Source: Bacilli bacterium
GTDB lineage: Bacteria > Bacillota_I > Bacilli_A > RFN20 > CAG-826
Direction of reading: 5' to 3'
Assembly (NCBI GenBank): GCA_024683495.1
Contig: JAIKYF010000071.1
Coordinates: forward strand, 1 to 58,756
Length of the DNA stretch: 58,756 bases
The stretch's first letter is position 1, and each line of letters starts with the position of its first letter. This document shows positions 7,892 to 27,149 of the stretch, in pieces. The position numbers were made by a program, and so were the translations under genes. The notes beneath the pieces are model-generated. The model was given only the letters and a program-made list of their open reading frames with translations. It was not told the origin of the DNA and did not search any database.

Positions 7892-7920
7892 TATACTAGA
7901 GGATTTTTAAATCTCTACCT

Positions 7921-8592: not shown

Positions 8593-8671
8593 GGCTATAT
8601 CATAATAAGAAACTAAACAAAAGACAAGATAATCTTGTTTTGAAAACTAGATGATTTAAATTTAATCGATA

Positions 8672-9658: not shown

Positions 9659-9830
9659 ATCTATAGTTTAACATTGATTTATTTATTTTTAAATAAACTA
9701 GGACAAATATTAAATATTTAGAAAAAAGCAAGTAATTATCGATAGATTAAAAATATTATAAAATCATTTAAGCATGTCACTACCTAAAGTCCTCAAAAAA
9801 TGGTAAATTATTGTTACGAGGTAAATAACA

Positions 9831-10266: not shown

Positions 10267-11523
10267 ATGAAAGCATTGGTACTTTGCGGCGGAGGATCAT
10301 TAGGCATTTATGAGATAGGTGCTTGGAAATACCTCGAAGAAAGAGGAGAGCATTTCGATATCATCACCGGCTCCTCCATCGGTGCCCTCAATGGAGCCTT
10401 GCTTCTTTCGTCTAACTTAGAAGAAGCCATTGATTTATGGAACAAGATCACGGCCGAGGAAGTCATGGTCGATGGCTTCAATATGTATAAAGGGATGTTC
10501 GCCGACATCAAGAATGGCTCTTTGAAGAAAGCCCCGCAATTCATGAAGATCTATCTTAAGAATAGAGGGGCCGACATCACTCCATTCAAAAACCTCCTTA
10601 AGAAGTACATCAAACCCAAAATCATCGTCAAAAACCCCATAAAATTAGGAATCGTCACCACTTTATACAAGGGGCAAAAAGAAGTTAGAGTCCTTCTTAA
10701 TGAAGAGCCAGAAAAGAGAATCATCGATTGGCTTCTTGCCTCCAGCGCCTGCTTCCCGATTTTCCCCATGTATAAAATCGGCAAGGAAACCTATGTCGAT
10801 GGAGGATATAGCAATAACCTCCCCATCGACTACGCGATCGAGCTGGGAGCCGATGAAATCGTCGCCATCCCTCTGCCCGCCTTCCCGAAAGTCCCACAGC
10901 ATTCTGAAAGAATGAAACTTCCTTTCGTTAAGGCGATTAGGCCATCTCATCCAATGGGATTTTTGATGAACTTTGATAGAAAGACCCTCGATCAGAACTA
11001 TTTGATGGGTTATTTAGATGCAAGAAGAGCCTATGGTGAGACCTATGGGAATATCTTCTATTTCAAGAAAGACCCTAAACTAGATTCTTTAGCAGAGAAG
11101 TTCGTCTATGCAATCGCAAAAACTGATATAAATAACTATCAAAGAATCTCCGATTTCCTCGTTTTCAATGGCAAAAAGCCTATATCTTCCATGGATATGT
11201 TCATTCGAACCCTCGAGGAATTAGGCTCTTGGATTGATATCGATTTCTTAAAAGAATATGAACTCCAAGACTTCTTGACCGCCTGCCACGAGAAGATTCT
11301 GAAACTAAAGAAAGATAAATATTATCAGACTTTTGCTAAACGTCTGCCTCCCGCGAGAATCGTTTATCCTAAAGACCGGTTGGCCGCTTTAGATTATTGC
11401 TACAACCATTATAAGGATGAAAAAATCTCCAAAAGGCATCTTCAAATCAGAAGAGCCTCTCCGGAATCGGAAGCCGTCTACTTCCTCTTCCGGGTCCTGA
11501 GCCAAGAAGGCTACACGGTATAA
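10267..11523 (+). CDS. Patatin-like phospholipase
   Basis: Oxyanion GGGSLG, nucleophile elbow GSSIG (GxSxG) and catalytic DGG (VDGGYSNNLP). Confidence 0.85.
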   Translation: MKALVLCGGGSLGIYEIGAWKYLEERGEHFDIITGSSIGALNGALLLSSNLEEAIDLWNKITAEEVMVDGFNMYKGMFADIKNGSLKKAPQFMKIYLKNRGADITPFKNLLKKYIKPKIIVKNPIKLGIVTTLYKGQKEVRVLLNEEPEKRIIDWLLASSACFPIFPMYKIGKETYVDGGYSNNLPIDYAIELGADEIVAIPLPAFPKVPQHSERMKLPFVKAIRPSHPMGFLMNFDRKTLDQNYLMGYLDARRAYGETYGNIFYFKKDPKLDSLAEKFVYAIAKTDINNYQRISDFLVFNGKKPISSMDMFIRTLEELGSWIDIDFLKEYELQDFLTACHEKILKLKKDKYYQTFAKRLPPARIVYPKDRLAALDYCYNHYKDEKISKRHLQIRRASPESEAVYFLFRVLSQEGYTV

Positions 11524-12283: not shown

Positions 12284-12412
12284 GATTAATTTCCTTTCAA
12301 TGTTGTCCCCTCTATTATAAATCAAGGAATGAAATTAAAAAGCCAAACAAGAAAGAATTTTTCTTGTCTTATCCTTGATAAAAGTTCTAGGCGAGGCGAA
12401 AATACAAGGGCT

Positions 12413-12826
12413 ATGAAAAAACTTTATATTGATTCCACCGCTAGAGACCTCTTAGTCGCTAGGCAATTAAAAGAGGTCCTCACCAAGATTGATATCGATG
12501 CCGAAGTCAATTCTTTGGAAGACCAATTCTCGGGAGTGATCCTTCTTTTATTCACTAAAGACACGGTTAAAGAAGAGATGTTCAGGGAATTCAGTTGGCT
12601 GACTAGCGAATTCGATTTCTCTAAGGTTAAGAATCTTCGGGTCTTATGTTTCCTTGCTTATCATTCAAAAGAAAGAAAGGCCGAAGACCTCTTTGAGGAA
12701 GTCGTTTCCCCTGTCTATGAGGATTATTTCTCGGAAGAATTCAAACCTTACGCCTTTGATTTCGATAACGAGGAGCCGTCCTTGGAAGAATTGCAAGAGA
12801 TCCTCTTTGAAGGCTACTCCCTCTAG
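12413..12826 (+). CDS. Small cytoplasmic protein of unknown function with an alternating beta/alpha (flavodoxin/TIR-like) pattern
   Basis: 137 aa from MKKLYIDST. The segments GVILLLFTKDTVKEEMFREFSWLTSEF and RVLCFLAYH resemble TIR beta-C/alpha-C and beta-D regions. The start is uncertain: the ORF-track ATG at 12329 lies only 46 nt from the gpmA start. Confidence 0.5.
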   Translation: MKKLYIDSTARDLLVARQLKEVLTKIDIDAEVNSLEDQFSGVILLLFTKDTVKEEMFREFSWLTSEFDFSKVKNLRVLCFLAYHSKERKAEDLFEEVVSPVYEDYFSEEFKPYAFDFDNEEPSLEELQEILFEGYSL

Positions 12827-12847: not shown

Positions 12848-12877
12848 GCGTGCAAATCCCGCACGCTTTTTATTTTT
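12848..12877 (+). terminator. Rho-independent terminator after the small 12413-12826 gene
   Basis: GCGTGC aaatccc GCACGC followed by TTTTTATTTTT. It contains the recurring GTGCAAATCCCGC motif. Confidence 0.7.
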
Positions 12878-12952: not shown

Positions 12953-13897
12953 TTGTTATTATTACATATACGAGGAAAAATCATACTCACAAGCATTCCA
13001 AAAGATAGGCTAAAAGCCGTACTCTATCTAAAAGATTTGTTAGTTGAGAAGAGAATCTATGACCTTCCAGGACCCATAGATTTATCTTTCGAGGGAACAA
13101 GCCCTTTCGTGATGAATCTATTAGAAGAGCTCCCAGCCTCTATCTATGTTGGTAAAACTCTCTCCATCTATCTTGAAGATGAAAGCGAGGTCCTCTGGGA
13201 TAAGGCCAAGTCGATGGAATATCTAGAAACGTTGGGTCTGGTCCGCTTCGAAAAACTCTCGAAGATGGGAATGGCTGAACCGAAAGGGACTGTGATCAAG
13301 GTTAATGACGAACTGGGAAAAAGCCTTGAATATAGTGATGAAGAGTATGAGAACTTCTACCGGGAAATCCTCCATTTCTCCAACATCTTCAACGCCTTCG
13401 ACAATCTCGATGTCGTTGAGGGATATAAGCCTCTAAAAGATCTGGTGGCAGAGAAAAATGATCCAGGTTGCTTCACTTGGAAATATTATCTCCCCTATCT
13501 CTCCATCTATGCGAAAGCCAAATATATCGGCTTGGAACTCGATGGCTCGACCTTAAGCAAGATAGTAATAAACCCGACAATCCGTTCCTTCGTTGGGCTC
13601 GATACTAATCCCATTAGACATGAGGATTTCTATCTCGCCTTAAAGGGCTTATATAAAATGAAGGGGGATTTGCTTACAAAAACGGCCTCGCTTGAACATG
13701 ATATGTGGATCATCCGATCCATCTCCAAGCTCGGCTATCTAGAGAGCAAGAAGCATCTATATGTCCCGTTTGAGGAATTACCGCTAAGCGAAGATCCATC
13801 ATTGGCGGTAACCTACAATAACGACATCATCAAATACGATTATTTTGGGGTCTTGTGCCTCAACTTATATGCCACCAAAGGGGGTCAAAATGAATAA
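12953..13897 (+). CDS. Hypothetical protein, first gene of the candidate system operon
   Basis: 314-aa ORF with a TTG start in the track. The first in-frame ATG is about 45 codons in. I recognised no motif. Its stop overlaps the next gene's start by 8 nt. Confidence 0.55.
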   Translation: MLLLHIRGKIILTSIPKDRLKAVLYLKDLLVEKRIYDLPGPIDLSFEGTSPFVMNLLEELPASIYVGKTLSIYLEDESEVLWDKAKSMEYLETLGLVRFEKLSKMGMAEPKGTVIKVNDELGKSLEYSDEEYENFYREILHFSNIFNAFDNLDVVEGYKPLKDLVAEKNDPGCFTWKYYLPYLSIYAKAKYIGLELDGSTLSKIVINPTIRSFVGLDTNPIRHEDFYLALKGLYKMKGDLLTKTASLEHDMWIIRSISKLGYLESKKHLYVPFEELPLSEDPSLAVTYNNDIIKYDYFGVLCLNLYATKGGQNE

Positions 13898-14795
13898 AAA
13901 ATTAGAAGAATTCGAAATCTATAAAACCGCATCTTCTCTCGTCGATGACGGTTTGAAGAAATTACTCGAAAAATGGCAGATCATTTCCGAGAGACGGGCA
14001 ACTAGCGAAGGCGTTCCTCTTTTGCCAAACATCTTCTTGGAGTGCTCCAATGCCTTTGAGATTCAAGAATTTGTGACCAATTTGGGAGTCTTCCTCTCTG
14101 AGCAGAGAATCATGGACTTCGATGGGAAAGCTTTATCCTATTACTACGTCCTCGATTATTCGCGTTCCTCTAAAGAGAATTCCAAAGACATCGAAACTAT
14201 GGAAAGCCTCACTTTCCCGGGCTTCACCCATTTCTACACCGTCATCAAAGAGCAACTGACGAGATTCGGTAAGCCATATAGAGGCGTCTTAGCCATCGAT
14301 ATCACCGATTGGATCGAGGGAAGGCATTATGACGAAATAAAATTCCACGATTTCTTGGCTTTCATGCACGATAACGATGAATGCACGTTGGCGGTTTTCA
14401 TCTCCAAGTGCCGCGATGCCTCGAAGAACAGCGACGCCTTCAAGGAAATCGCCGCGACTTCGAGATTGATTCGCATCAAAGCCGATCATGCCGATGTCTC
14501 CTTGTTCCTCAATCAATTCAAGGAGCTCATCCACGAAAAGGGACTTGAGCTCGATAAAGAGAGCGAGAAAGTCATCACCGAGACAATCGTGGCCGTCAGC
14601 GAGAACAAATACGTGGACATCCACCACTTCCTCAGTGAATTATCGGTCGATTTAGCCTATAACAAATTCATCGATTCCGCCGATGACAAAGTCATCCATG
14701 GCGATGAGGTCGACTACTATAAGAAAGATGGGGAATTCGTCTCCGCTTACTTATCTAGCGGCAATTACGGCTACGGATTTAAGGGGGCCAGATAA
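13890..14795 (+). CDS. Degenerate AAA+ (SpoVK/CbbX/EccA-like) protein lacking canonical Walker motifs
   Basis: Start at MNKKLEEF with a GGGGG RBS. The layout resembles SpoVK-type AAA+ proteins: LPNIFLECSNAFE sits where GxxGxGKT is expected, GVLAIDITDW where GVLFIDEA is expected, and TLAVFIS and SRLIRIKADHADVSLF where sensor regions are expected. Confidence 0.4.
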   Translation: MNKKLEEFEIYKTASSLVDDGLKKLLEKWQIISERRATSEGVPLLPNIFLECSNAFEIQEFVTNLGVFLSEQRIMDFDGKALSYYYVLDYSRSSKENSKDIETMESLTFPGFTHFYTVIKEQLTRFGKPYRGVLAIDITDWIEGRHYDEIKFHDFLAFMHDNDECTLAVFISKCRDASKNSDAFKEIAATSRLIRIKADHADVSLFLNQFKELIHEKGLELDKESEKVITETIVAVSENKYVDIHHFLSELSVDLAYNKFIDSADDKVIHGDEVDYYKKDGEFVSAYLSSGNYGYGFKGAR

Positions 14796-14797
14796 CT

Positions 14798-16516
14798 ATG
14801 AACTCAAGCAGATACAAAAGATATATCGGCGAGCACGCCTTCGACAATGACTATCTCAGCGAAGCCGAAATCAAAAGCGTCCTCAGCGAATTCAATACAC
14901 TCAATCCTAAGCCCGGTGTCTTAGCGGGTTTGCCACTCTTATCCGATGGGAAGACGATGTATTTGGATAATGCCGACTACCATACCTTGATTTTGGGCGC
15001 CACCGGTTCCATGAAGACCCGTCTATTCGTCATGCCTGGCGTCCATGCCTTAGGGCAGGCGGGAGAGAACATGGTCATCACCGATCCTAAGGGTGAGATT
15101 TATGAGAGGACTTCCGGCTTCTTGAAATCCCAAGGATACGACATCAAAGTCCTCAATTTCCGTGACACCGACCACACTGATTACTGGAATCCTCTATATG
15201 AGGCGGCCAAATATTATCGGGAAGGCAATAGCCAAGATAAGGATTTTGCCATCGGAATGGTCTCTGATTTAGTCCAGATATTAGCCGCCCCGTTCAAGGG
15301 CCCCAAGGGCGATCCCTATTGGATGGAAATGGCCACCAATTACACGATGGCCTGCATCCTTATGGAATTCGTCTTATGCAAAGACATCAACAAGATCTCT
15401 CTTCGCAGCGTCGATAGTTTCATCAACGCCGCGGCGGAAGATGAAAGCTATGATGATGACGATGAGATAGATATCAAACGTCTATTCTCCATCATCCCCC
15501 CGACTCACGTCATCTCCTCCAAGGGACGCGCGACCGTCAATACGGCCAGAGTCACAAAGCAAGGCATCGTCGTCACCGCCAAGAGCTTGACCAACATGTT
15601 CACCAACTCAATCGGCATCTCAAGAATGACGACTCTTAACACGATCAATATCCACGACTTCTCATCCAAAGATAAAAAGACCGCTTTATTCGTCATCGTT
15701 CCCGATGAGAAGACCTCCACCCACTCTTTGGCGGCCTTATTCGTCAAGCAAGTCTACGAAACCTTGGTCAGAGACGCTCAGAAATTAGAAGGCTTCCGCC
15801 TCCCAAGAAGACTCAACTTCATCTTGGACGAATTCGCGAATATGCCAGAGATCGCCGATATGGGCTCTATGATTTCCGCGGCTCGTTCCCGTAACATCCG
15901 TTTCAATATTGTCATTCAGAATAACTCCCAATTGGTCTCCAACTATGGCTTAGAGAAAGCCGAGACCATCAAGAGCAACTGCTTGAACTGGGTTTATCTT
16001 TCCACCAAAGAGAACGCTCTTCTCGAGCAACTCCAGAAGATGGGTGGCAATAAAGTCACAAGCCGGGGCGAAAAGCCAGTCCTCAATATGGAAGACCTCA
16101 ATGGCTTAAAGAAAGGTTGGGGATACGCCGAAGCCTTACTATTATTAGCAAGAGCCAAACCTCACGTCACCAAAATCACCGACATCGATTCCTATCCCGC
16201 TTATAAGAAGTTAGATGCGGTGCCATTCCCCAAACTCAAAAAGAAATTCGACTTCTACACCTATAGCGACATCTTGAAAGAACACTCCATGAGAGAGCTT
16301 AAGTATCTCTTCGAAAGAGACGTGGCCCTCACCTTGGCAGACCCCGATGATGAAAGCGAGAAGGCAGGGAATAAAACAGAAGAAGTGACCGGGGCCCCAA
16401 ATGATAGACCCGGCGCGAACATCGACGTCAATAAAGATACCGCCTCATCTCCGCTTAAGCCACCATTCGGAGATAATAAGGACGACGATGACGACGACGG
16501 TGGCTTCGATTGGTAA
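14798..16516 (+). CDS. VirD4/TraG/TraD-family (type IV coupling protein-like) ATPase. It is soluble, with no TM anchor and an acidic C-terminal tail.
   Basis: HTLILGATGSMKTRLFVMP...VITDPKGEIYERT (P-loop region), Walker B RLNFILDEFANMPEI and RSRNIRFNIVIQNNSQLVSNYG (TraG-D_C-like). There is no hydrophobic N-terminus. The protein ends in NKDDDDDDGGFDW. Confidence 0.8.
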   Translation: MNSSRYKRYIGEHAFDNDYLSEAEIKSVLSEFNTLNPKPGVLAGLPLLSDGKTMYLDNADYHTLILGATGSMKTRLFVMPGVHALGQAGENMVITDPKGEIYERTSGFLKSQGYDIKVLNFRDTDHTDYWNPLYEAAKYYREGNSQDKDFAIGMVSDLVQILAAPFKGPKGDPYWMEMATNYTMACILMEFVLCKDINKISLRSVDSFINAAAEDESYDDDDEIDIKRLFSIIPPTHVISSKGRATVNTARVTKQGIVVTAKSLTNMFTNSIGISRMTTLNTINIHDFSSKDKKTALFVIVPDEKTSTHSLAALFVKQVYETLVRDAQKLEGFRLPRRLNFILDEFANMPEIADMGSMISAARSRNIRFNIVIQNNSQLVSNYGLEKAETIKSNCLNWVYLSTKENALLEQLQKMGGNKVTSRGEKPVLNMEDLNGLKKGWGYAEALLLLARAKPHVTKITDIDSYPAYKKLDAVPFPKLKKKFDFYTYSDILKEHSMRELKYLFERDVALTLADPDDESEKAGNKTEEVTGAPNDRPGANIDVNKDTASSPLKPPFGDNKDDDDDDGGFDW

Positions 16517-16535: not shown

Positions 16536-17138
16536 ATGGCTGAAGAAAAAGAAGAAAAGAAAGAACTCAAGATTGACGAAAAGTCCCTTGAACTCTTCCA
16601 AAAAGACAGAAACATCCTCATTCTCGGGGAAATCAACGAGAAAATGGCAATCAATATCCTTCTCAGGCTCCTCTATCTCGATTATGAGAACCCCGATAAG
16701 GAAATCACCATCTACATCCACTCCCCTGGCGGATCGGTTTCGGCCGGCTTAATCATCGTCGATGCGATGCAAAACGTGAGAGCCCCGATTAGAACCGTCG
16801 ATATCGGCATGGCCGCCTCAATGGCCTCGGTCATCTTGGCCTCCGGCTCCAAAGGCAGAAGACAGATCTTCGAGCACGCCAAAGTTTTGATCCATCAGCC
16901 GATGATCGTCATGGGCGGGGAGACTGCCACCAACACGACCCAGGCGAGAAAACTCTATGAGGATATGGCCCATGAGCAAGAAATCCTCGAATCCATCTAT
17001 GCCCTCCACTCCTGTGGAAAATACACTCGCGAAGATTATATGAAGCTCACCGACAAAGGCGACTACACGATGGAAGCCGATGAGGCCATGAAGATGGCCC
17101 TTGTCGATAGCATCATCAAACCTAGAGACATCAAATAA
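16536..17138 (+). CDS. Divergent ClpP-family (S14) serine protease
   Basis: Start at MAEEKEEKK, 7 nt after AAGGAG. Conserved YIHSPGGSVSAG, GMAASMAS (Ser95), LIHQP (His120) and TDKGDYTMEADEA (Asp173/176). The N-terminus is E/K-rich rather than the usual ClpP axial-loop sequence. Confidence 0.85.
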   Translation: MAEEKEEKKELKIDEKSLELFQKDRNILILGEINEKMAINILLRLLYLDYENPDKEITIYIHSPGGSVSAGLIIVDAMQNVRAPIRTVDIGMAASMASVILASGSKGRRQIFEHAKVLIHQPMIVMGGETATNTTQARKLYEDMAHEQEILESIYALHSCGKYTREDYMKLTDKGDYTMEADEAMKMALVDSIIKPRDIK

Positions 17139-17178: not shown

Positions 17179-20124
17179 ATGCCCTCTGACGGAAACTTTC
17201 TTGCCTCCACTCCCGAACTAATACGATTCTATCTATGTTTAATCATCGGACTGATCGTTTATTTCGGCGTGCTCGTCGGGGTTATCTACCAAAGAATCAA
17301 AAGGAAAACCTCCCTTTCTCCCTTTATCATCATTTCTTTGTTCTTTATCGGACATCTAATCATTTTGATCCCGGTTTATACCTTCCTTTATGACCATCAG
17401 CAACTGATGGGCAATTCTTTAATCCAGAATGGAATCCAGACCGGGACCATCCCTTATAATAACGTTCCTTCGTATTGGCCAGCCTTCAAGATTATCTCCG
17501 GCGCCTTCACGTCCTTCGTCTTCCAGATCGATTTCGATGCGATGGAATATCTTTCCGAATGCGGGGATTGGATCATCCGTAACTACTTCATCTTCATCGC
17601 CATCACGGCCGTCGCCGACACTATCGCCACTTCCTACGCCTTGATTAGACTCTTCTTAAGAGCCTTGAAGGCAAATGGAAAAACCATGTTTAGGTGGTTG
17701 GTGAGAGAAGACATTTATTACATCTTCACCGATTTGGAATTCGACGAGATCAAAAGCTTCATCATCGAACTTGAATCCGGAAAGTCCCGTCCAGGAAGAA
17801 AACCCCCTTCAGTCCGCGTCATCTTGTCTAGATCATCTCAATATACCGACCCCGGACGTGAGCTCCATGACCAATTAGTCAACGCAAGAATCGCCGTCTT
17901 CGCCGAAGACCTTTCAAAGCCTCTTCTTATAAAATTCATGCGCAAACACCGCATATTTTATAAAAAGAACGAGAAAGTGAACTTCTATTCTCTCTACTAT
18001 AAAGATGAGAAAAACTACGAGTTCGCCAGAATCGCCTGCGAGATTTTCGAAGATTGCGCGAAGAAGAAAGATACTGAGCATTACAACAAAAGATTCAACA
18101 CCTACATCAAATACAACCACTTCTACATCTCTTATCAAAACGCCGAATTATTCTTAGAGAACAATAATGACTTCGCCAAAAAGTCCCGCGGGGCCATCAG
18201 CTTGTTTAACGAATATACTTCCAACGCCGAAGATTTCGTTTTCAATATGCCTTTGACCGAATTCATCCTCAAAAGAAAGGGTGAAGATAAAGATGTCAAA
18301 GTCAAATTCACCGCCTTCTCCACATGCAATCCTCGTTTGAAGGATGGCTTAGGGTTTGGATTCTTAGGAGGGGATGTCACTAATCAAAACATCTATTCGC
18401 TTATTCCTTCCGTCGATATCAACTTCTTCGGATTCGGGCGAATCAACCAGACCTTGCTCACCAAGATGAGCTATACATATCAGATTCCCGGTTGCAACAA
18501 AGAGACTATGGGGAATATCGATCCAAACGATCCTAATTCCTATAAACTCAACTTCTTCGTTTATTCCAATGATGACAATTCCGAATTCGTCGATGCCCAT
18601 TTTAGAGGGGTATCCAAGGAAAACGATGCGGAATTGACGAGGAATTTTGGATATTTCACCGATATATTCAATTTCGAAAACGAAATTAGGCTGCAGAATT
18701 CCTTAGAGAGAATCGTCGATCGGGCCTCCTACCATAACATCAATAAAGATGGGGAAGACATCGATGTCGAAAAACAACCCTCTAGAGAAGTCATCATCAT
18801 CGCGACGGGCGATCCTCATAACAATTTCGCCCTCGCCGTCAAGACTCAGCACATCATCCGCCAAATCATCGCGAAAAGAAAAGCCTTGGGCGAAAGATTC
18901 AAATCCATCCCCATCTTCGTCCATATCAACCGCGAGAAGATCTATAACTCCAGCTTCATCGGCGATGATATCTTCGAGATGAGGCAGATTAGCCCAGTCA
19001 TCAATAGGGATAATAACTTCCCAGGCGAAAACGGAACCTCAAGCGAAAGAGAGATTTATCTATCTACCGCCGTTCCAATCGTTATCTTCGGCCGCGATAA
19101 GCGTTTCCGTTCCGATGATAGCGCCTCTTCGCTTAAGCCATTCGCCGTCAGGAGCAAATATGTCTATGACTATGATTATGATTTGGTGTTGAGCAAAGAT
19201 GGCTATAGCTTCAGTTTGAAGAGAAACTCCAAGCCAACGATCGATGCCAAGGCCGAGAACAAATTCGACATCGATGATGTCCGTAACTGCGAATCCAACT
19301 ATGCGACCGCGGCTCATTTGCCAACGAAGTTAGGCTTAATGGGTCTATGCCCCGCTTTCGTCGCCGAGAAGGAAAACGCCGCTCAAAGACATGAAGCCAT
19401 CAAAGATAAGCTCGGTGCCCTCAATAACGTCTTCGATCTCAATGAAGTGGATTCAGGAGCTTTGACCGCCTCGATGAAGGAACTACAAAAATTGGTCGCT
19501 GAATATCTTGAGCACCGGAAATCCATCAAGGCTGATTCGAAGACCACAAATATCACTTTAGCCCAAAAACAAAAATATAAGAAAATCGTCAAATATTTAC
19601 AAAATAATACGGTTTTGCTCGAGAAATATTATGAAGTCTTCACTCTCGGCTTCGTGAACAGAATAAAGCCGGGACTAAGAATCCTCGCCGAGACCGAACA
19701 CAATCGCTGGCTTTATTATTGCTTGTCTAGAGGAGATGTCCCGATGAGCAGAGAGCACTTCTTCTCCAAGAACATCGAATATTATTCCACCAAAGGCACT
19801 AGAAGGGGCAATTTCTCCAAAGATGCCGGAGGAACCGTTCACTTCAACCTCATCGATTTCTCGAATAGAAAGCAAGCCATCCTCGACCAGGCTGTAGTGA
19901 GTCTATTAACCATCGCTGACGATAGTCCGAAAACCATTTATGAAGATATGAAGAAAATCTTCGAATCCTACTACTTCAACGATGCTAAACTCTATATCTT
20001 CTCGGATTTCTTCTTAGAAGGGACCGAATACGATTTAGTCGAAGAGGATAACTTCTTCGAAGTCTGCGAAGAGGATGTCGATTATAGCGGTTCGACAATC
20101 TCCACCGCCACGAAAAATCAATAA
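17179..20124 (+). CDS. Large polytopic membrane protein with cytoplasmic TrkA-N/Rossmann-like and C-terminal RyR-like regions
   Basis: 981 aa with an AAGGAGG RBS. About four N-terminal TM helices lie in the first ~170 aa. INFFGFGRINQTLL (aa ~414) and VIIIATGDPHNNFALAVKT (aa ~538) resemble KTN/TrkA-N segments. LAETEHNRWLYYCLSRGD...VHFNLIDFSNRKQAILD (aa ~835-900) resembles a RyR domain. Confidence 0.6.
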   Translation: MPSDGNFLASTPELIRFYLCLIIGLIVYFGVLVGVIYQRIKRKTSLSPFIIISLFFIGHLIILIPVYTFLYDHQQLMGNSLIQNGIQTGTIPYNNVPSYWPAFKIISGAFTSFVFQIDFDAMEYLSECGDWIIRNYFIFIAITAVADTIATSYALIRLFLRALKANGKTMFRWLVREDIYYIFTDLEFDEIKSFIIELESGKSRPGRKPPSVRVILSRSSQYTDPGRELHDQLVNARIAVFAEDLSKPLLIKFMRKHRIFYKKNEKVNFYSLYYKDEKNYEFARIACEIFEDCAKKKDTEHYNKRFNTYIKYNHFYISYQNAELFLENNNDFAKKSRGAISLFNEYTSNAEDFVFNMPLTEFILKRKGEDKDVKVKFTAFSTCNPRLKDGLGFGFLGGDVTNQNIYSLIPSVDINFFGFGRINQTLLTKMSYTYQIPGCNKETMGNIDPNDPNSYKLNFFVYSNDDNSEFVDAHFRGVSKENDAELTRNFGYFTDIFNFENEIRLQNSLERIVDRASYHNINKDGEDIDVEKQPSREVIIIATGDPHNNFALAVKTQHIIRQIIAKRKALGERFKSIPIFVHINREKIYNSSFIGDDIFEMRQISPVINRDNNFPGENGTSSEREIYLSTAVPIVIFGRDKRFRSDDSASSLKPFAVRSKYVYDYDYDLVLSKDGYSFSLKRNSKPTIDAKAENKFDIDDVRNCESNYATAAHLPTKLGLMGLCPAFVAEKENAAQRHEAIKDKLGALNNVFDLNEVDSGALTASMKELQKLVAEYLEHRKSIKADSKTTNITLAQKQKYKKIVKYLQNNTVLLEKYYEVFTLGFVNRIKPGLRILAETEHNRWLYYCLSRGDVPMSREHFFSKNIEYYSTKGTRRGNFSKDAGGTVHFNLIDFSNRKQAILDQAVVSLLTIADDSPKTIYEDMKKIFESYYFNDAKLYIFSDFFLEGTEYDLVEEDNFFEVCEEDVDYSGSTISTATKNQ

Positions 20125-20126
20125 TG

Positions 20127-20162
20127 AAAAACGAGTTCAGATGACGTTCTGAACTCGTTTTA
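20127..20162. terminator. Bidirectional terminator closing the candidate operon
   Basis: ACGAGTTCAGA / TCTGAACTCGT stem flanked by A and T runs, between convergent genes. It overlaps the stop codon of the phosphatase gene. Confidence 0.75.
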
Positions 20163-20978
20163 TTCTAAATATTTGCCTTTTATCTTGGCGATTTCCTCAT
20201 CGGTGAGGTTGATTTTATTTTTTAGATAATTGAGGAAGCTTCCATATTTATCGTCTAGATGGTCAAGCGCTCTATCGAGAACTTTCAAATCGACGCAGCA
20301 CACTCTTCTGAAGCCATCGCTATGGGCAAGTTCATAATCGTACTTTTCAGCCCTTTCTAACATGAGTTCATAATAATCCTGGGCAAAATAGTTGGTGAGG
20401 AGGAAATCATCCTCAATGAGCTCTTTAGAGGCTCCTAAAACCGAAAGAATGGCCGCGGAGGTTAATCCTGTCCGATCTTTACCAGCCGAGCAATGGAATA
20501 AAACGGCTCCTTCGGCCTTAAGAAGGATATCGAAGGTCTTTCTCAGGGAAATATGGAAATCGTCGTCTTCTAGTAATTTGATATATAAATCCTCAGTGAA
20601 GGTTGGGGAAATGGAAAGATAGAATTCCTCGAGACTCCGATTATCGGGATGGGGAAGACCGACGGCGATGGCGTCTGCCCCACTTCTATTGGCATTCTCA
20701 ACGCGGAAGGCGGGGTTGAAGATAATGGTCGCGCCTGGGACTTCTAAGTCTGGAGTAGCCGCGACCTCCAAGGAGTTGCGCAAATCCAAAATATACTGCA
20801 AATGATAGGTATGTTTAAGAATTTGGCGATCTTCTTCGTCAATGTTATGAAGATGTCCGGTCCGCAATAAAAGATTCTTTTTGATAAAGCGAGAATCCGT
20901 CATTTGATAACCGCCTAGTTGGCGGGCATTCCGGATATTCTTAGTATCGATTATGAAATCTATTGGGTTAAGGTTCAT
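20160..20978 (-). CDS. Protein-tyrosine phosphatase family protein (Y_phosphatase3-like)
   Basis: CX5R active-site loop HCSAGKDRTG. The protein is 272 aa. Confidence 0.8.
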   Translation of the reverse strand: MNLNPIDFIIDTKNIRNARQLGGYQMTDSRFIKKNLLLRTGHLHNIDEEDRQILKHTYHLQYILDLRNSLEVAATPDLEVPGATIIFNPAFRVENANRSGADAIAVGLPHPDNRSLEEFYLSISPTFTEDLYIKLLEDDDFHISLRKTFDILLKAEGAVLFHCSAGKDRTGLTSAAILSVLGASKELIEDDFLLTNYFAQDYYELMLERAEKYDYELAHSDGFRRVCCVDLKVLDRALDHLDDKYGSFLNYLKNKINLTDEEIAKIKGKYLE

Positions 20979-21514
20979 TAGAAACGAATGTTGGTTTTCT
21001 TAGCAGGTTTGCCTTCGATGATCGTATAAGCATAGAAGGAAGTGAAGACTTCGCTATTCTCTTTGACATAGCATCCTTCGGCGAGATTGACGCCTAAATG
21101 GATGATTGAGGAATGTCCGACGAAGACATCATTCCCAAGAACGATGGGTTTGCTAGTAAGCTTCATCGCATTATTTTTGATATCTCTTTTGGTGGGATTA
21201 TTTTCATGGTCGACAATCATGACATTGGGGCCGATGACACAGTCATCACCGATGGTGATACCCCCATTTTCTGAGACATATATGACGGCGTTTTCTTGAA
21301 CGATCGAATTTTCACCGATGGTGATTTGGCCCTTGCCAAAGATTCTCACTCCAGGAGCGATGTAGGATCCTTTGCCTAAATTAACTTTGACTAAGGAAGA
21401 AATTGAGGCCTCCTTATCGATGCCCCTCTTATTCCCAAAAACCGCGTTACGATCAGTAGGCTCAGTTTCGGCAACTTCTTCTTTTTTGAAAAATTTCTTA
21501 AATGATTCGAACAT
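20978..21514 (-). CDS. Left-handed beta-helix (hexapeptide-repeat) acyl/acetyltransferase
   Basis: Repeated [LIV]-G-x-x-x-x hexapeptides (IGENSIV, IGDDCVIGPNVMI, LGNDVFVGHSSII). Confidence 0.75.
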   Translation of the reverse strand: MFESFKKFFKKEEVAETEPTDRNAVFGNKRGIDKEASISSLVKVNLGKGSYIAPGVRIFGKGQITIGENSIVQENAVIYVSENGGITIGDDCVIGPNVMIVDHENNPTKRDIKNNAMKLTSKPIVLGNDVFVGHSSIIHLGVNLAEGCYVKENSEVFTSFYAYTIIEGKPAKKTNIRF

Positions 21515-21666
21515 AACTGCCCCCTAGAATTAGACTAACAAATAATAATTTGTTTTCACTCCAAATCATAGTGAATAATCATAACTATTCAACAAAAACG
21601 CCTTCATGGTGGCGATTATCGAAGATTTTCACCACCTTCTTTTTTCTCTAGGATATAATATTTCAC

Positions 21667-22428
21667 ATGAAGAAATCTGAAAGCGGAACAAAAGTGCGCC
21701 CCTTCGAAACCGAAGAAGGAATTGATGAAGCCGTCGCTACATCGATTTTGAATCTGGTCAAAAGAAAGCCAAATGCTTTAATATCCCTGACCCCCGGTCA
21801 TTCTTTGGATGGAGTTCTAGATAAGCTCGTCGACCTTGCCAAAGCCAAAAATGTGTCTTTCAAGAAAGTCAAAATCTACTTCGCTGAAGACTTCCTCGAT
21901 GTGCTTGAGGGAACCGCGACCATCAAAAGCCACTACTACGAGAAGTGGTTAAAGCAATTAAAGATTCCTGAAACCAATGTCCATTCTCCGACTTTGGCCA
22001 ATTATCGCTCCTATGACCAGCTCATTTCCGATGATGGAAAGATTGACCTTTGCTTGCTCACAATCGGAAACCGTGGCCGAATTGCCGGGAATAATTACCC
22101 TTCCAATAGGCATAGCAAAACCCATATCGCCAAAATTCCAAGAGAAAGATGGCTCAGCTATCTATCTTATTTCGGAGGGAATCCCGACATCGCACCAACC
22201 TATGAAATGACAATGGGCGAAGAGACCATCTTCAAAGCCAGGAAGATCTATATCATCGCCAAAAACTTGAAACATCTGGAGGGTTTGAGATCGTTAGCCT
22301 ATGGCTTAATCGGACAAAGGATGCCAATCGGCAACCTAAAATACCATAAAGATGTCTCGGTATATCTGACAACTAAACTAAACTCCTATCTGGAGTGGCG
22401 AGACAACTACTACGACCCTGAACTCTAA
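21667..22428 (+). CDS. NagB/6-phosphogluconolactonase-fold protein with degenerate catalytic motifs
   Basis: The scaffold resembles glucosamine-6-P deaminase. However, YFAEDF replaces FNLDEY and LLTIGNRGRIAGNNYP replaces LLGIGxDGHIAFNEP. Confidence 0.5.
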   Translation: MKKSESGTKVRPFETEEGIDEAVATSILNLVKRKPNALISLTPGHSLDGVLDKLVDLAKAKNVSFKKVKIYFAEDFLDVLEGTATIKSHYYEKWLKQLKIPETNVHSPTLANYRSYDQLISDDGKIDLCLLTIGNRGRIAGNNYPSNRHSKTHIAKIPRERWLSYLSYFGGNPDIAPTYEMTMGEETIFKARKIYIIAKNLKHLEGLRSLAYGLIGQRMPIGNLKYHKDVSVYLTTKLNSYLEWRDNYYDPEL

Positions 22429-23984
22429 GCAGGGTCTTTTCTTTGCTTTCCTCTTCCTAGGAAATAGGCTCCAAGGAATAAAGCGTTGATAAATACAAAA
22501 GTTCCTCCGGTGATAATCATCTGGAGCCATTCGGCTAAAGATGAGATATCAACGGAATGATGATAGATGAAATAAACCGCGAGATAGGCGATAAGAGACA
22601 TCGAAGCGAAGATGAGCAAATTCCGATAATAAAGATGAATCTTTAAGCCAATCTTCTTCTGATAATAGATAGAAGAGATGATGATATACCCCACTAGAAC
22701 TAATCCGCCTATAGAAATAAGCGGTCCCATCATTTTCCATCCATCAGGAAGCAAATAGATGAATAAGGGGGTTAATCCCGCCGAAAGAACCGCTAAAGCG
22801 AAGAGGACAACCGCCATGAATTTATGTTGGTTTTTGGCTCTTTGAATCTCGATTCCTAATTGTTGGCTAAGAGGGATGACCCACATCGTTAGGAAGATGG
22901 CGGAGAGGAGATAAATCTTATTTAAGCCGTCGGCAGTGATATCAGATTTCCCTAGCCAAACGCGGATAAAATGCTCACCACAGGCAGCGAATCCACCAGC
23001 TATAATCGAGAGGACGATAATCTGGATTCTACTGACTTTAAGGAAGAGGGAATTAATCTCTTCGTCTTGTTTTTCGATGGCCAATGAATTGACTCTAGGC
23101 GCAAAAGCGGAGGTTATGGCGTTGGAAATCTGAGCCTCATAAGTATAGAACTGGAGACCATAAGAGAAGATTGTGACGGCCGCCATACCGACCATATGTC
23201 CAAGGGTGACCTTGCCGAGGTTATTGATGACCATCGAGACGATGACCAATAAGAAGATATAGATGCTGAAGATAGCAACTTCCTTAAGCATCTTCTTATA
23301 AGCCCCTTTCTCTTTGAAGAGAGGGGCAAGGCCCATCTTTAGCTTGGATTTAGCATAGACTAGGCTCAATAAATCGAAGAAGATCATCACCGCCCCGTTG
23401 ATTATGGCGACGATTATGACATTCGCCCCAATGGCTAAGAAGATGAAGGATAAGCCAATCGAGATGACATGGACCAAAAGATAGAGAAGCTCTTCAAGGA
23501 TGAACTTCCTCCTAAAATACATGAACCAGGTGTATAAGGATAAGGCGAAATCTAAGCCCACCGAGAGAGAAAATACCAAGATCAAATAGAAGAGGGTTTC
23601 TAGATTAGCAGTTGTCGCATTCTCATAGGTGAAAATCCCATATTTATATAAAAATCCCAGGCAAATCCCAACTAAAATTACTAATGTCCCGATAATCGCA
23701 AAAGTAAATTGATAGAAGGAATTAACTTTCTTCAACCCTTCCTCTCCTTCTTCTTTTTCGTATTTAGTCGCGAATTTAATGTAGGAATTCTCCATCCCGA
23801 AAGAAAGCAAAAGCAACAAAGACACTAAAGATGAGGCGAAGAAATAAAGGCCATTATCGATGGATCCGACTTTCGAAAGCAAAAACGGCGGATAGAAAAT
23901 ACCCAAGACCACATAGACAATCAATCTAATATAGGTCAGGGAGATTCCGCCTTTAATGTTTCTTTTTTCTTTCTGCTCGAGCAT
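22425..23984 (-). CDS. Polysaccharide flippase (Wzx/MOP superfamily)-like membrane protein
   Basis: About 14 predicted TM helices. Start chosen at MLEQKEKRNIK with an AGGAAAT RBS. It sits next to a Wzy-like gene. Confidence 0.6.
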   Translation of the reverse strand: MLEQKEKRNIKGGISLTYIRLIVYVVLGIFYPPFLLSKVGSIDNGLYFFASSLVSLLLLLSFGMENSYIKFATKYEKEEGEEGLKKVNSFYQFTFAIIGTLVILVGICLGFLYKYGIFTYENATTANLETLFYLILVFSLSVGLDFALSLYTWFMYFRRKFILEELLYLLVHVISIGLSFIFLAIGANVIIVAIINGAVMIFFDLLSLVYAKSKLKMGLAPLFKEKGAYKKMLKEVAIFSIYIFLLVIVSMVINNLGKVTLGHMVGMAAVTIFSYGLQFYTYEAQISNAITSAFAPRVNSLAIEKQDEEINSLFLKVSRIQIIVLSIIAGGFAACGEHFIRVWLGKSDITADGLNKIYLLSAIFLTMWVIPLSQQLGIEIQRAKNQHKFMAVVLFALAVLSAGLTPLFIYLLPDGWKMMGPLISIGGLVLVGYIIISSIYYQKKIGLKIHLYYRNLLIFASMSLIAYLAVYFIYHHSVDISSLAEWLQMIITGGTFVFINALFLGAYFLGRGKQRKDPA

Positions 23985-26106
23985 ATTTCCTAAAAGCCCG
24001 TGAATGGGCATTCCGCAGCAAATTCTCAAAACTCCGATATGACTTCAGACGATAATCATAAATCGACCATGCCTTATGGATTTCTATTTCCATTATATCA
24101 CGGTCAAATTCCTCGTCTGATCCATATAGAGGCTTCATTTTCCACACATAGAGGACATAAATCGCAATGGTCTCGGCCAAGACCAAAGATAAATAAGAAA
24201 GCTGCCCTCCAAAGTTTGGCAAGAAACGGAAACCAATAATCGCCCCCACTCCAAGGATGAAGGCCACATAAGGTTTAATCATCAAGCGGATATAGGCCCA
24301 GGGCTTTATCGTCTTAAATAAGATTATCGAGGCGAAGACAATCGCGATAACTAGATAGCCAATACAAACTAAAGCCATAACGAATGGCTTAGAGAAATAC
24401 GGCACCAAAACTAAGGCCATCGCCCCTAAAACTCCGGATATCGTTAAGGGAGCCGCTAATGGAGAATGTTTCTTAAATCCCGCCCTAATCCCAGCGATGA
24501 TGAAGGGAATGGCCAAATAAGCCACACCTAATGGCAAGAGGAAATGCTTAATAGAGATGAAGGTATATGGATTAATGCTATTGATATAGAAAGAAACGAA
24601 CACTAAACCGATAAATAATGGGGTAATGAAACGATAAGCCCTTCCGAATATCGAAACGGTCCCATCGATCTCCGTATCAGGGGAGATGACGTATCTCTTT
24701 TCGATTTCTTTGATGTCTTCTCTCTTGGAGAGATAGATATCGTTCATCAAAGGAATCGGTAAGAGAAGCAAACATAAGGCGGACTGGAAGGTGAAACCAA
24801 TAAAGGAATAGGTTTCGAAAACTCCTGCCACGTTGATAAGGACCCACATCAATAGATAGTAGAACCATTGACGATTCTTTAAGCGAATGGCCTTGATAAT
24901 CAGATAGAAGAAATAGCCAAGCATCACCACATAAAGAATCGCCCCAGCAATGCCATACTGACCTAATATTGAGAAGTAAGTCGAATCCATCGGGGCGTGA
25001 GGTTCAATTCCAGGACTCATCTTTAATAAGATATACATGACTTTATCGATGCTGCCATGGCCAAAGCCGAGGAAGGCTATCGTGCCGTCGGTGGTTAAAC
25101 CATTCCAAACATTAGTCCAGATCTTGACTCTCGACATGAAGCTACTCCTAATGGAATTGATGACTTTCTCATAGACATTTTGAATAACTGAGCCAAGCCT
25201 CGGGATGTAATCTTTAAAGAAGCCAAATAAGATAGCGAATGCCAAACCCACGATCATAATGACCGCGAAGATGATCGTGATGGTGTTTCTTACCGGGTGA
25301 GCTTTATAGGTCGCGACAATGCGGTAGACGAAGAAGCAAATGCCAAAAATAACCGTCACAAGCATCGCGGTTTTAGAGACGATAAACATTTCAAATAAAG
25401 CGAAAATCAACATCAAAACCCATCTAAATAGCCTAGGACGGTAATTGATGAGATATCCTTCGGCCGCAATGCCGAAGAAAACGAACATTCCAAAGATATT
25501 TCGATTGGTCGTAAAGCTCTGGGGACTTACATAATTGCCGCGAGGGCCAAGGTTTTCAAAGAAGGAAACATATTGCCTAAACTCAGTAACCGCCGAGAAA
25601 ACAATCATGACGATTACCCAAATGACAATCAGCTTCATGATGAGGGCAAAGAGTTTTTCTCCCCGGAATAAGGCCGGGGCTAAGCCGAATGTCAGATAGA
25701 TACTCATCCCCACTCCTAAAGTCGAGCAGATATATCGCAACAAATCCCCTTCCTCGATCGTGTAAACGATGACCCCATCTATTTTTAGTCCAGGGAAGAA
25801 AATCAGAGCGCTTAGTCCAACTAGAGTGAAAATCAGGGTGAAGAAAAAGACGATGAGATTGATTTTGGCATCCATATATCGGTAGCCCAAATAAGTGGTC
25901 GCGCCAAAAAGCAAGGCTGAAACGCCGAAAGAAATGAAGAACTCAGTATTCGTTAGAGCCGTTCTTGAACCGGCATCAAAATAAGCGTGATTTTCAAGGA
26001 AAAAACACAAGACGACTGAGGTCAATATTACAAGAATCGTCATTAAAAAATGACGAGGTCTAATTTTTAGGGCACTTGCTTCGTCCATGTGTATTAGTTT
26101 ATTCAT
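23953..26106 (-). CDS. O-antigen polymerase/ligase (Wzy_C)-family membrane protein with an extended C-terminal TM region
   Basis: 717 aa and highly polytopic. The segment HAPMDSTYFSILGQYGIAGAILYVVMLGYF matches the O-antigen ligase family signature region. Confidence 0.55.
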   Translation of the reverse strand: MNKLIHMDEASALKIRPRHFLMTILVILTSVVLCFFLENHAYFDAGSRTALTNTEFFISFGVSALLFGATTYLGYRYMDAKINLIVFFFTLIFTLVGLSALIFFPGLKIDGVIVYTIEEGDLLRYICSTLGVGMSIYLTFGLAPALFRGEKLFALIMKLIVIWVIVMIVFSAVTEFRQYVSFFENLGPRGNYVSPQSFTTNRNIFGMFVFFGIAAEGYLINYRPRLFRWVLMLIFALFEMFIVSKTAMLVTVIFGICFFVYRIVATYKAHPVRNTITIIFAVIMIVGLAFAILFGFFKDYIPRLGSVIQNVYEKVINSIRSSFMSRVKIWTNVWNGLTTDGTIAFLGFGHGSIDKVMYILLKMSPGIEPHAPMDSTYFSILGQYGIAGAILYVVMLGYFFYLIIKAIRLKNRQWFYYLLMWVLINVAGVFETYSFIGFTFQSALCLLLLPIPLMNDIYLSKREDIKEIEKRYVISPDTEIDGTVSIFGRAYRFITPLFIGLVFVSFYINSINPYTFISIKHFLLPLGVAYLAIPFIIAGIRAGFKKHSPLAAPLTISGVLGAMALVLVPYFSKPFVMALVCIGYLVIAIVFASIILFKTIKPWAYIRLMIKPYVAFILGVGAIIGFRFLPNFGGQLSYLSLVLAETIAIYVLYVWKMKPLYGSDEEFDRDIMEIEIHKAWSIYDYRLKSYRSFENLLRNAHSRAFRKYARAERKKKH

Positions 26107-26133
26107 TTTTGCCCAAAGGGCAACGAAACAATG

Positions 26134-26165
26134 AAAAAAATTATGGCATCAAACCATAATTTTTT
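26134..26165. terminator. Bidirectional hairpin between two minus-strand membrane-protein genes
   Basis: AAAAAAATTATGG catcaaa CCATAATTTTTT. Confidence 0.6.
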
Positions 26166-26195
26166 CATTTTTCCGTGCAAATCCCGCTTAAATTA
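26160..26195 (+). repeat. Copy of the ~36-nt intergenic element TTTTTTCATTTT(T)CCGTGCAAATC(C/T)CGCTTAAA
   Basis: Near-identical to the reverse complement of 49765-49801. The core 13-mer is also at 12850-12862. Confidence 0.6.
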
Positions 26196-27105: not shown

Positions 27106-27149
27106 AAATATACTTTATAACACAGTCCTCAAAAATCAAGAAATCGATA

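Follow-up and report, generated by a model that had tools for sequence, protein, structure and literature searches.

Introduction

The described systems that come closest to the subject of this report are the RCK-gated channels and the nucleotide-sensing transmembrane (TM) effectors of Thoeris-type systems and of cyclic oligonucleotide-based anti-phage signalling (CBASS) systems. That subject is a protein of 981 amino acids (aa), encoded by the open reading frame (ORF) 17179..20124 (+) of a 58,756-nucleotide (nt) stretch of DNA from a Bacilli bacterium (contig JAIKYF010000071.1 of assembly GCA_024683495.1), which is called here, at its full length, the window. In the RCK/KTN channels (Slo1/BK, Slo2.2, MthK, TrkA/KtrA) a membrane module is followed by tandem Rossmann-like cytoplasmic domains, and the 981-aa protein is modelled with a similar arrangement.

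Another point of comparison are the ryanodine receptor (RyR) type domains. Phage RyR proteins bind or cleave the cyclic ADP-ribose (cADPR) signals of Thoeris (PMC13232231). According to this 2026 preprint on the phage protein RyDEP, R12 domains bind or cleave 2'/3'cADPR by means of H75, W78, H100 and D117, four residues that are conserved across PF02026; the catalytic dyad of RyDEP consists of the His of HxxW and the distal Asp, and the majority of the RyDEP homologues tested were binders and not enzymes (PMC13232231). The DO-GTPase systems, in turn, were described as NTP-dependent conflict systems, with TM components in 67% and proteolytic effector release (Kaur et al. 2020, PMC7159879); RyR, ClpP, VirD4 and TerB are not mentioned in that work.

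The 981-aa protein is the product of the final gene of an operon that also encodes a soluble VirD4-like ATPase and a ClpP-family peptidase, and it is most likely a component of an undescribed phage-defence-type system. The reading that we favour, with a probability of about 0.4, is that of a membrane effector, gated by a nucleotide or by a partner, in a new conflict system. The family to which it belongs is probably a shared, swappable end-component of NTPase-centred conflict cassettes, with an anti-phage function, because the TM protein stays constant whereas the NTPase and protease modules vary, the members are extremely divergent, their spread is patchy, and TIR, STAND and toxin-antitoxin genes are frequent neighbours. 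A constant TM protein that is combined with many NTPase/protease modules is, by analogy, the effector pattern of conflict systems.

The gene and its protein family

The ORF is a genuine gene and did not arise by chance, since colinear homologues exist: an exhaustive profile search of 1.84 billion representatives gave 114 clusters at E<=1e-3, 57 of them at E<=1e-10. A strong ribosome-binding site (RBS), AAGGAGG, is placed 8 nt upstream of the ATG. The stop codon is followed by a hairpin (20128..20161) with a 14-bp stem and with A- and T-runs on its flanks, a bidirectional-looking terminator that closes both the operon and the convergent phosphatase gene. With the RBS, this terminator and the homologues, the gene proposed in the original prediction, which was made from the letters of the window alone, is confirmed. 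The peptide strings quoted there were also all recovered (8/8), at residues 19-37, 49-71, 103-117, 136-160, 414-427, 538-556, 836-853 and 887-904; the string 414-427 reads INFFGFGRINQTLL, the string 538-556 (VIIIATGD...) begins 124 aa later, and the last two begin with LAETEHNRW and VHFNL. The identical NCBI record is named 'MAG: hypothetical protein K5694_03460 [Bacilli bacterium]', MAG standing for metagenome-assembled genome. The earlier statement that large parts of the protein resemble nothing recognisable was upheld, as no Pfam, NCBIfam or PADLOC model matched the protein even at E<=10; Pfam domains were equally absent from the 55 best family members.

In a word-indexed search of an index of 5.8 billion proteins only three matches were obtained, namely the protein itself and two relatives that are 26-27% identical and colinear over the full length. 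The same search with a 92-sequence profile added one distant match. Most family members have 700-1100 aa, and they diverge to ~20-25% identity, with large variable inserts, even among members from related MAGs. When genomes were scanned with the short subfamily, 15 loci were recovered, every one of them in a MAG of gut or rumen Bacilli, the hosts being Candidatus Enteromonas, 'Bacillales' and Erysipelotrichaceae. The family protein was absent from 72,556 plasmid and 50,697 phage records. It is a rare, unnamed family of membrane-anchored proteins of gut and rumen Bacilli.

Gene neighbourhoods of the family members

The neighbourhoods of 22 loci with a family member were compared after clustering of their ORFs; loci other than the window are cited by L numbers. 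A soluble VirD4-like ATPase is encoded in 9 of the 22 loci, including the window, and is followed by a ClpP in 8 of these 9. A gene for a ~300-aa protein is found directly upstream of the ATPase gene in all nine. In the window, L005 and L007 this is a protein that we call X, and in the short-subfamily loci it is an unrelated protein of ~305 aa (cluster 4), whose homology with X (cluster 7) was rejected (hhalign probability 0.2%), so that the two are positional analogues only. The member is in tight operon linkage with the VirD4-like and ClpP genes in the window, L005 and L007. The link between VirD4-like ATPase and ClpP persists despite the ~20-25% identity of the members and the differing gene order.

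The other partners of the family vary. In L003 a 1406-aa AAA-AAA-trypsin fusion (5776-9996, +) ends 4 nt upstream of the member, in L001 a radical-SAM/DO-GTPase2 operon is placed beside it, and in L008 its neighbours are MNT/HepT and a STAND NTPase. DUF4062-STAND genes were found in L006, L015 and L019. In L014 the member is kept together with RyR and TerB-like genes, and VirD4 and ClpP are absent. A canonical small RyR-domain gene (PF02026, E 2.8e-36) stands beside the cassette in 6 of the 22 loci and, in L007, a 549-aa protein with weak RyR matches occupies the slot of the first gene of the window operon.

TIR or TIR-like genes are present in 6/22 loci. A likeness to Thoeris, including type II with its TM-Macro effectors, is that TIR_2 or ThsB-like TIR genes are placed beside members in L005, L011, L019 and L021; the TIR-NB-ARC gene of L005 starts 20 nt downstream of the member and the TIR gene of L011 ends 34 nt upstream of it, each on the same strand. 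Moreover, putative nucleotide-binding domains joined to a membrane module would follow the same logic of a signal-gated effector. The differences are that the window operon has no TIR gene, that the 981-aa protein has no SIR2, SLOG or Macro domain, that PADLOC finds no Thoeris component, and that the VirD4-like and ClpP partners are foreign to Thoeris.

With the systems that combine an NTPase, a protease and a membrane effector, such as the gasdermin operons and those of Kaur et al. 2020 (PMC7159879), the cassettes share the combination of a constant TM protein with a peptidase, either ClpP or trypsin, and with an NTPase that varies (VirD4-like, AAA, DO-GTPase or STAND). They differ in having neither a gasdermin fold nor a caspase-like protease, and ClpP and ATPases of the type IV coupling protein (T4CP) kind are not among the components described in PMC7159879 (0 occurrences).

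Several further observations were made in these loci. The ATPase and the protease that are fused in L003 are separate genes in the window. TIR-methyltransferase fusions and double-TIR proteins occur near members (L019 2355-3656 (-), L021 6543-7892 (-), L021 3792-4619 (+) and L019 16892-17698 (-)), and the double-TIR proteins L021 3792-4619 and L019 16892-17698 exceed the ThsB_TIR cut-off. In the short-subfamily cassettes there are two ClpP paralogues in tandem, of which one retains the Ser-His-Asp triad and the second has lost all three residues (L013 13245-14305, L015 13637-14695, L018 10395-11451, L019 11007-12066, L020 14778-15840 and L021 13381-14441), which by sequence suggests a heteromeric ring of active and inactive ClpP. 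In L013-L015 the cassette is adjoined by a protein of 347 aa whose N-terminus is HicB-like (E 1.5e-7). Small cassette neighbours in L013 (14629-15075, -) and L005 (2145-2702, +) gave weak TerB matches (E 0.02-0.04); these are below the cut-off, so the assignment was not adopted and they are referred to as 'TerB-like?' only.

The operon in the window

The operon is composed of five tightly packed genes with hairpins at both ends (12848-12866 and 20128-20161), in the order orphan protein with a RyR-like motif, X, soluble VirD4-like ATPase, ClpP and 981-aa protein. The gene junctions overlap or span 2-40 nt, and RBSs are present. The upstream limit is a terminator-like hairpin, GCGTGC...GCACGC followed by a T-run, at 12848..12866 (+). 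The 981-aa protein had been placed at the end of an NTPase/protease operon, which is correct: the VirD4-like ATPase (14798-16516) and ClpP (16536-17138) are encoded upstream of it, and this context recurs in distant relatives. It is the sole membrane protein of the operon.

The third gene (14798..16516, +) encodes a soluble VirD4/TraG-like ATPase of 572 aa that belongs to the T4CP-like group of the FtsK-HerA superfamily (Pfam T4SS-DNA_transf, 6e-40). On NCBIfam NF045973 (conju_CD1115) it scores 269.4 bits against a cut-off of 250 and is thus a match to that family. Its closest annotated relatives, at ~31% identity, are from Firmicutes conjugative plasmids, and PADLOC matched it weakly to mad8 (7e-9). 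Its Walker motifs are GATGSMKT (A, near residue 68) and LDEF (B), and the RSRN motif is present. In this ATPase and in that of L005, which share GATGSMKT, Met replaces the canonical Gly before Lys; the short-subfamily cassettes have GTTGSGKT. The maximum 19-mer hydropathy is 1.25, in keeping with a protein without a TM anchor, and the C-terminal tail is the acidic-aromatic DDDDDDGGFDW (window 16480-16516). The same holds for all nine VirD4-like ATPases, none of which has a TM anchor and all of which end in an acidic run and an aromatic tail, often with a basic tip. These tails (window, L005, L007, L013, L015 and L018-L021) resemble a partner-docking tail. Docking of ClpP through an IGF-like tripeptide of the ATPase was rejected, as no [ILMV]G[FL] is conserved and the acidic-aromatic tail alone is shared.

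With the type IV coupling proteins (VirD4/TraG/TrwB and the CD1115 family) this ATPase has in common the family assignment, the Walker B motif and RSRN. It differs from them in having no TM anchor, no type IV secretion system (T4SS) or relaxase context and the Walker A motif GATGSMKT; furthermore, the ATPases of these cassettes invariably have a ~300-aa protein as partner and, in most cases, ClpP as well.

The fourth gene (16536..17138, +; true start ATG 16536, RBS AAGGAGA) encodes a divergent serine peptidase of the ClpP family with 200 aa (Pfam CLP_protease PF00574, 4.6e-44). The Ser-His-Asp triad is intact in the alignment with E. coli S111/H136/D185, and the protein is predicted to be an active peptidase. 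Since it scores under every ClpP equivalog cut-off it is, judged by sequence, a ClpP paralogue.

Protein X (13890..14795, +) has 301 aa from ATG 13890, in an ORF that runs from 13845. Its start overlaps the preceding stop as ATGAATAA and its RBS is AAGGGGG. The homologues in L005 and L007 are 31-33% identical and stand in the same slot, so that X is directly upstream of the VirD4-like ATPase in all the closest cassettes (window, L005 and L007). X gave no match with Pfam or with PDB profiles. The impression, gained from GVLAIDITDW, that X might be a degenerate SpoVK-type AAA+ protein was dropped, because the Pfam scan and the PDB profile search gave it no support.

The first gene (12953..13897, +) encodes an orphan protein of 314 aa from TTG 12953; the NCBI annotation (K5694_03440) has 261 aa from ATG 13112. 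The search of 5.8 billion proteins returned only the protein itself. A RyR-like motif at its C-terminus, ASLEHDMW...LGY...KKHLYVPFEELP, was seen by eye only; the Pfam scan and searches with hidden Markov models (HMMs) gave no significant RyR match, and the HMM of the C-termini of the 981-aa protein family reaches residues 242-266 with E 0.7. Kinship with the 549-aa protein of L007 that has RyR matches was rejected, as there is no similarity.

A search of the literature on VirD4 with ClpP, RyR or TerB in defence found no description of such a cassette. The combination of X, soluble T4CP-like ATPase, ClpP and 981-aa protein, with RyR partners, is absent from PADLOC-DB 2.0 and from the literature found.

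Membrane module

An AlphaFold2 (AF2) model of the 981-aa protein was built from an alignment of 55 family sequences. It has a mean predicted local distance difference test (pLDDT) score of 77.5 and a predicted template modelling score (pTM) of 0.78, and is confident enough to be read at the level of domains. The order of elements in the model is TM1, TM2, two short helices, TM3 with a long helix, domain A, domain B, a long helical region and a compact C-terminal helical domain. The gene product is accordingly presented here as a family member with three TM helices, two alpha/beta domains and a helical C-terminal domain, on the grounds of the ORF, the homologues and this model.

The membrane module comprises residues 11-175 (17209..17703, +), with TM1, TM2, an acidic extracytoplasmic loop of ~60 aa that contains two short helices, and TM3, as judged from hydropathy, the AF2 model (pLDDT mostly 85-94) and loop charges. 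TM3 runs on as a long cytoplasmic helix in the model. Since the loop charges are -1, +4, -5 and +4, a topology of three TM helices with the N-terminus out and the C-terminus in fits the protein. About four TM helices had been proposed before; the polytopic nature and the N-terminal membrane anchor stand, but only the segments 18-36, 46-64 and 132-156 are strongly hydrophobic. The segment proposed as an additional helix, FKIISGAFTSFVFQI, has a 19-mer Kyte-Doolittle maximum of just 1.06 and is modelled as a short amphipathic helix (100-114) within the extracytoplasmic loop. The large cytoplasmic portion of the earlier proposal was borne out, being built of alpha/beta domains in the model.

Cytoplasmic alpha/beta domains

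Domain A covers about residues 176-365 (17704..18273, +) and was delimited from the family alignments and from the beta-alpha-beta pattern of the AF2 model. Its family motifs are IFTD, TQxGxE, FYSxxxxDxDN, FYVSYQ and NEY...F.F.NP, and its sole match in the PDB profile search was a designed alpha/beta protein (E 0.018).

Domain B, about residues 405-665 (18391..19173, +), is Rossmann-like according to conservation counts, the AF2 model and Foldseek matches to the Slo1 RCK domain and to NAD enzymes. Its motifs are GFGRIN (418-423; nt 18430-18447), YQ (434-435), VIIIATGD (538-545) and PIVIFGR (633-639). GFGRIN is placed at the turn between beta1 and alphaA, where the model shows a beta-alpha-beta pattern. 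Among 92 family representatives the GFGxxN loop is nearly invariant (G418 92/92, G420 89/92 and N423 83/92), F419 and Q435 are also conserved near it, and G638, Y663 and K717 are conserved in domain B and beyond it. This loop and the EH(N)RW...H...D residues of the C-terminal domain are the most conserved residues family-wide.

The glycine-rich beta1-alphaA loop recalls the RCK/KTN channels, and so does the acidic residue after beta2, an Asp in 79/92 representatives that is replaced by Ser in the 981-aa protein. The top Foldseek match of the full model in the PDB was human Slo1/BK (7yo3_A), with E 2.3e-3, probability 0.99, 669 aligned columns and a template modelling score of 0.21, which is weak; it was followed by other Slo channels, including Slo2.2 with its TM module and tandem RCK domains, and then by NAD-binding Rossmann enzymes. 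No match reached E<=1e-3. The 981-aa protein differs from these channels in having only three TM helices and, by eye, no K+ filter, as well as an extra domain A and a large helical C-terminal region; moreover, the family is found in the context of ATPase, protease and TIR genes rather than of ion transport.

TrkA_N (PF02254) was matched neither by the 981-aa protein at E<=10 nor by 55 relatives at E<=1e-3, and four PDB sequence-profile searches (full length, domain A, domain B and C-terminal domain) returned nothing meaningful. Of the TrkA-N/Rossmann-like segments proposed earlier, there remain the nearly invariant GFGxxN at the beta1-alphaA turn and the Slo channels as best fold match; the TrkA_N assignment found no counterpart in Pfam or in the PDB profiles, and the Slo1 match is the weak one given above. 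A description as a TM module with tandem Rossmann/RCK-like domains is reasonable but weakly supported by the model.

C-terminal domain

The C-terminal helical domain (residues 826-950; 19654..20028, +) is a candidate for a divergent RyR/R12-like nucleotide pocket, as suggested by conservation, a fragment model, hhalign and the R12 ligand residues given in PMC13232231. It carries EHNRW (840-844; nt 19696-19710), H888 and D935. The conservation of these positions is 89/90 for H841, 89/89 for W844, 79/88 for H888 and 86/88 for D935, and the flanking residues are conserved as well (E840 89/91 and R843 90/90). The order HxxW...H...D, nearly invariant in the family, is that of the R12 ligand residues H75/W78/H100/D117 of RyDEP (PF02026; PMC13232231). 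A further likeness is that canonical RyR-domain genes are conserved neighbours of family members. The differences are the lack of a PF02026 match, loops between the conserved residues that are 20-30 residues longer than in PF02026, and the fact that the domain of the family is single-copy and fused to a membrane protein.

PF02026 was matched neither by the 981-aa protein (E<=10) nor by the 55 relatives, the PDB profile search did not return RyR, and a local RyR HMM gave E>0.2 at best on family members. Reciprocal HMM searches between family C-termini and canonical RyR proteins gave sub-significant signals in the expected register. In hhalign comparisons the probability was 1% against two RyR3 repeats and, against a broader RyR set, 2%, with a nominal P of 0.024 and in the expected register. 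A dedicated fragment model (pLDDT 80.8) recovered RyR3 Repeat12 from the PDB with Foldseek at ranks 5 and 9 of 11 matches, at a non-significant E of 5-7, and nothing relevant from the viral library BFVD.

The RyR-likeness proposed originally for this region is therefore maintained as regards the conserved HxxW...H...D in R12 order, but the HMM, profile, hhalign and fold tests were all non-significant and RyR membership was not accepted. The likeness rests on this pattern, on the nominal hhalign P of 0.024 in register and on genomic linkage to bona fide RyR-domain genes. We put the chances that the domain is a true R12 homologue at about even. The structural and profile checks suggested with the original prediction gave, overall, alpha/beta domains with weak fold matches to Slo and NAD-Rossmann proteins, but empty PDB profile searches and no significant RyR fold.

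Proposed role and alternative explanations

According to the mechanism that we propose, three TM helices would fix the protein in the membrane with the N-terminus outside and the C-terminus inside. The cytoplasmic part would offer two alpha/beta domains, one of them Rossmann-like with the invariant GFGxxN loop, and a C-terminal HxxW...H...D pocket that resembles the adenine-nucleotide/cADPR site of RyR R12 domains. The gene would be co-transcribed with those of the soluble VirD4-like ATPase, presumably hexameric, of the predicted active ClpP, of X and of the orphan protein with the RyR-like motif. Upon a trigger, the cytoplasmic domains would switch the state of the membrane module. The trigger could be a nucleotide, for example NAD/ATP or an ADPR species made by a TIR protein, or the action of the ATPase-ClpP pair, which would remodel or cut the protein, or both; that ClpP cuts the TM protein is pure hypothesis. 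The envelope would then become permeable or depolarised and the growth of the infected cell would stop (abortive infection). By analogy, a role as membrane-depolarising effector is plausible; the channel-like killer role, the defence role, the ligand, the gating and the membrane damage are what we infer. A fuller version, which as a whole seems unlikely, is a new class of immune effector. In it a membrane pore or disruptor would be gated through an R12-like pocket and a Rossmann domain, both reading adenine nucleotides, whether TIR-derived (cADPR/ADPR-type) or other, and it would be wired to a hitherto undescribed ATP-dependent proteolytic machine (soluble VirD4-like hexamer and ClpP), with small host RyR proteins as signal buffers or partners. 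That version would amount to a new type of defence system and to a bacterial counterpart of the way in which nucleotides control ryanodine-receptor-type domains on a membrane channel.

Several points weigh against a gated effector of a conflict system. The window operon contains no TIR gene or other recognisable signal-making enzyme, and PADLOC-DB 2.0 has no match for the 981-aa protein, ClpP, X or the first gene. The RyR and RCK assignments were below significance in all tests. No K+ selectivity filter (TVGYG-like) was seen by eye in residues 1-175 or in the family consensus, a pattern search for it not having been run. In L016, L017 and L024 the member stands amid housekeeping genes, which we take from their sequences to be HAD hydrolases, pseudouridine synthase-like and phosphoglucomutase-like genes, and no NTPase or protease is present; this context would be equally compatible with a housekeeping function that needs no partners. 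Many of the family loci come from related rumen Bacilli MAGs, so that common descent may account for some of the conservation of the neighbourhoods. Finally, the present data fit either an effector or a sensor role of the TM protein.

The sensor role is the core of an explanation that we regard as rather unlikely, in which the TM protein is a membrane sensor or docking platform that anchors the soluble ATPase and ClpP and uses its extracytoplasmic loop to sense events at the envelope or the entry of DNA. Damage or clearance would then be left to the ATPase-protease pair, which might, for example, translocate and degrade invading DNA or proteins. This would account for the 9/9 VirD4-like ATPases that have an acidic-aromatic tail and no N-terminal TM anchor of the kind typical of coupling proteins. 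Acidic-aromatic tails serve partner docking, as in TraD-TraM. The family protein is, besides, the only membrane protein of the operon and has a conserved, outward-facing acidic loop of ~60 aa, and with its intact triad ClpP could be the effector itself. However, members are also found with AAA-trypsin, DO-GTPase or TIR-STAND partners, or alone, which an effector that acts by itself would explain more readily than a dedicated anchor would, and L014 has the member with RyR and TerB-like genes but neither VirD4 nor ClpP. The members in L016, L017 and L024 would agree with a housekeeping nucleotide-regulated ion channel, or regulator of a transporter, of small-genome Bacilli, similar to the RCK/KTN-gated channels and merely adjoining variable islands; the Slo1/Slo2 fold matches and the GxGxxN...D Rossmann signature of the family point the same way. 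Such a housekeeping role is nevertheless improbable for a family as rare as this one (3 matches in 5.8 billion proteins and 114 clusters in 1.84 billion representatives), with ~20% identity and large variable inserts between members from related MAGs, no selectivity-filter motif by eye in the TM region or family consensus, tight linkage to VirD4-like and ClpP genes in the window, L005 and L007, and recurrent TIR, STAND, DO-GTPase and toxin-antitoxin neighbours.

Instead of to a gated pore, the conserved pocket could also belong to an enzyme that is tethered to the membrane and has NAD-derived nucleotides as substrates, perhaps a glycosidase or hydrolase like RyDEP, or to a sponge; such a protein would make, trim or end a TIR-type signal. 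The His of HxxW and the distal Asp, the dyad of RyDEP, are nearly invariant here, likewise the adjacent Glu and Arg (E840 89/91, R843 90/90), the Rossmann-like loop is of the dinucleotide kind, and TIR genes are adjacent in several loci. We consider this quite improbable, since the RyR homology itself is unproven, the tested RyDEP homologues were mostly binders and not enzymes (PMC13232231), and the conserved 3-TM module and the ATPase/ClpP partners would be left unexplained. Highly improbable, in our opinion, is that the operon is what remains of a conjugative or secretion machine, or a variant of one, with the membrane protein as translocation channel for the VirD4-like coupling ATPase. It is true that this ATPase exceeds the NCBIfam cut-off of the CD1115-family 'VirD4-like conjugal transfer protein' and has its closest annotated relatives on conjugative plasmids. 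Against this, relaxase, VirB4 and other T4SS genes were not seen among the annotated genes of the window or of the nine cassettes, where the neighbours are of the housekeeping or defence type; the family protein was unmatched in the 72,556 plasmids and 50,697 phage records; the island has no flanking repeats or tRNA genes; and nothing in conjugation calls for ClpP, RyR and TIR partners.

If the gated-effector reading is true, the cassette would be a defence-type system made of parts not previously seen together, namely an anchor-less T4CP-like ATPase, a ClpP paralogue (often as an active/inactive pair), RyR-domain proteins and a large TM protein. A host membrane effector with an R12-like pocket beside TIR genes would be the host-side reader that matches the phage RyR proteins, and the long-discussed link between cADPR and RyR-type domains would become testable in a simple system. 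Even without a defence role, this is a protein family of more than 100 clusters for which there is no domain model. On the gated-effector reading the family would also point to a variable hotspot in MAGs of gut and rumen Bacilli, which are poorly studied, and could be used as a hook for finding further NTPase-centred systems.

Surroundings of the operon

The island is chromosomal and placed among housekeeping genes. The operon is flanked by gpmA, a gene of the tyrosine phosphatase family and a hexapeptide transferase gene, and gatAB, ligA, pcrA and folC are found farther away. Flanking direct repeats and tRNA genes were absent at the island, and no conjugation genes are among the annotated genes of the window.

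Between gpmA and the operon there is an orphan small ORF (12329..12826, +) of 165 aa, probably 137 aa from ATG 12413, which has its own terminator and is a separate transcription unit. No relatives of it were detected and it has no Pfam, NCBIfam or PADLOC match. A patatin-like phospholipase (10267-11523, +; Pfam 3e-34) is encoded two genes upstream of the operon, past gpmA, and gave weak, below-cut-off matches to models of CBASS/anti-phage phospholipase effectors.

Downstream of the member, genes for a hexapeptide transferase and a glucosamine-6-P-isomerase-like protein are found both in the window (20978-22428) and in L001 (18448-19853), with wholly different upstream partners, which suggests that the two share a variable hotspot in related genomes. 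Kinship of the window proteins with the 336-aa protein of L001 was rejected, as no similarity was found. Just past the island, at 22425-28691 (-), four consecutive ORFs (534, 717, 305 and 513 aa) have no NCBIfam match at 1e-10 and may form a second block without assigned function.

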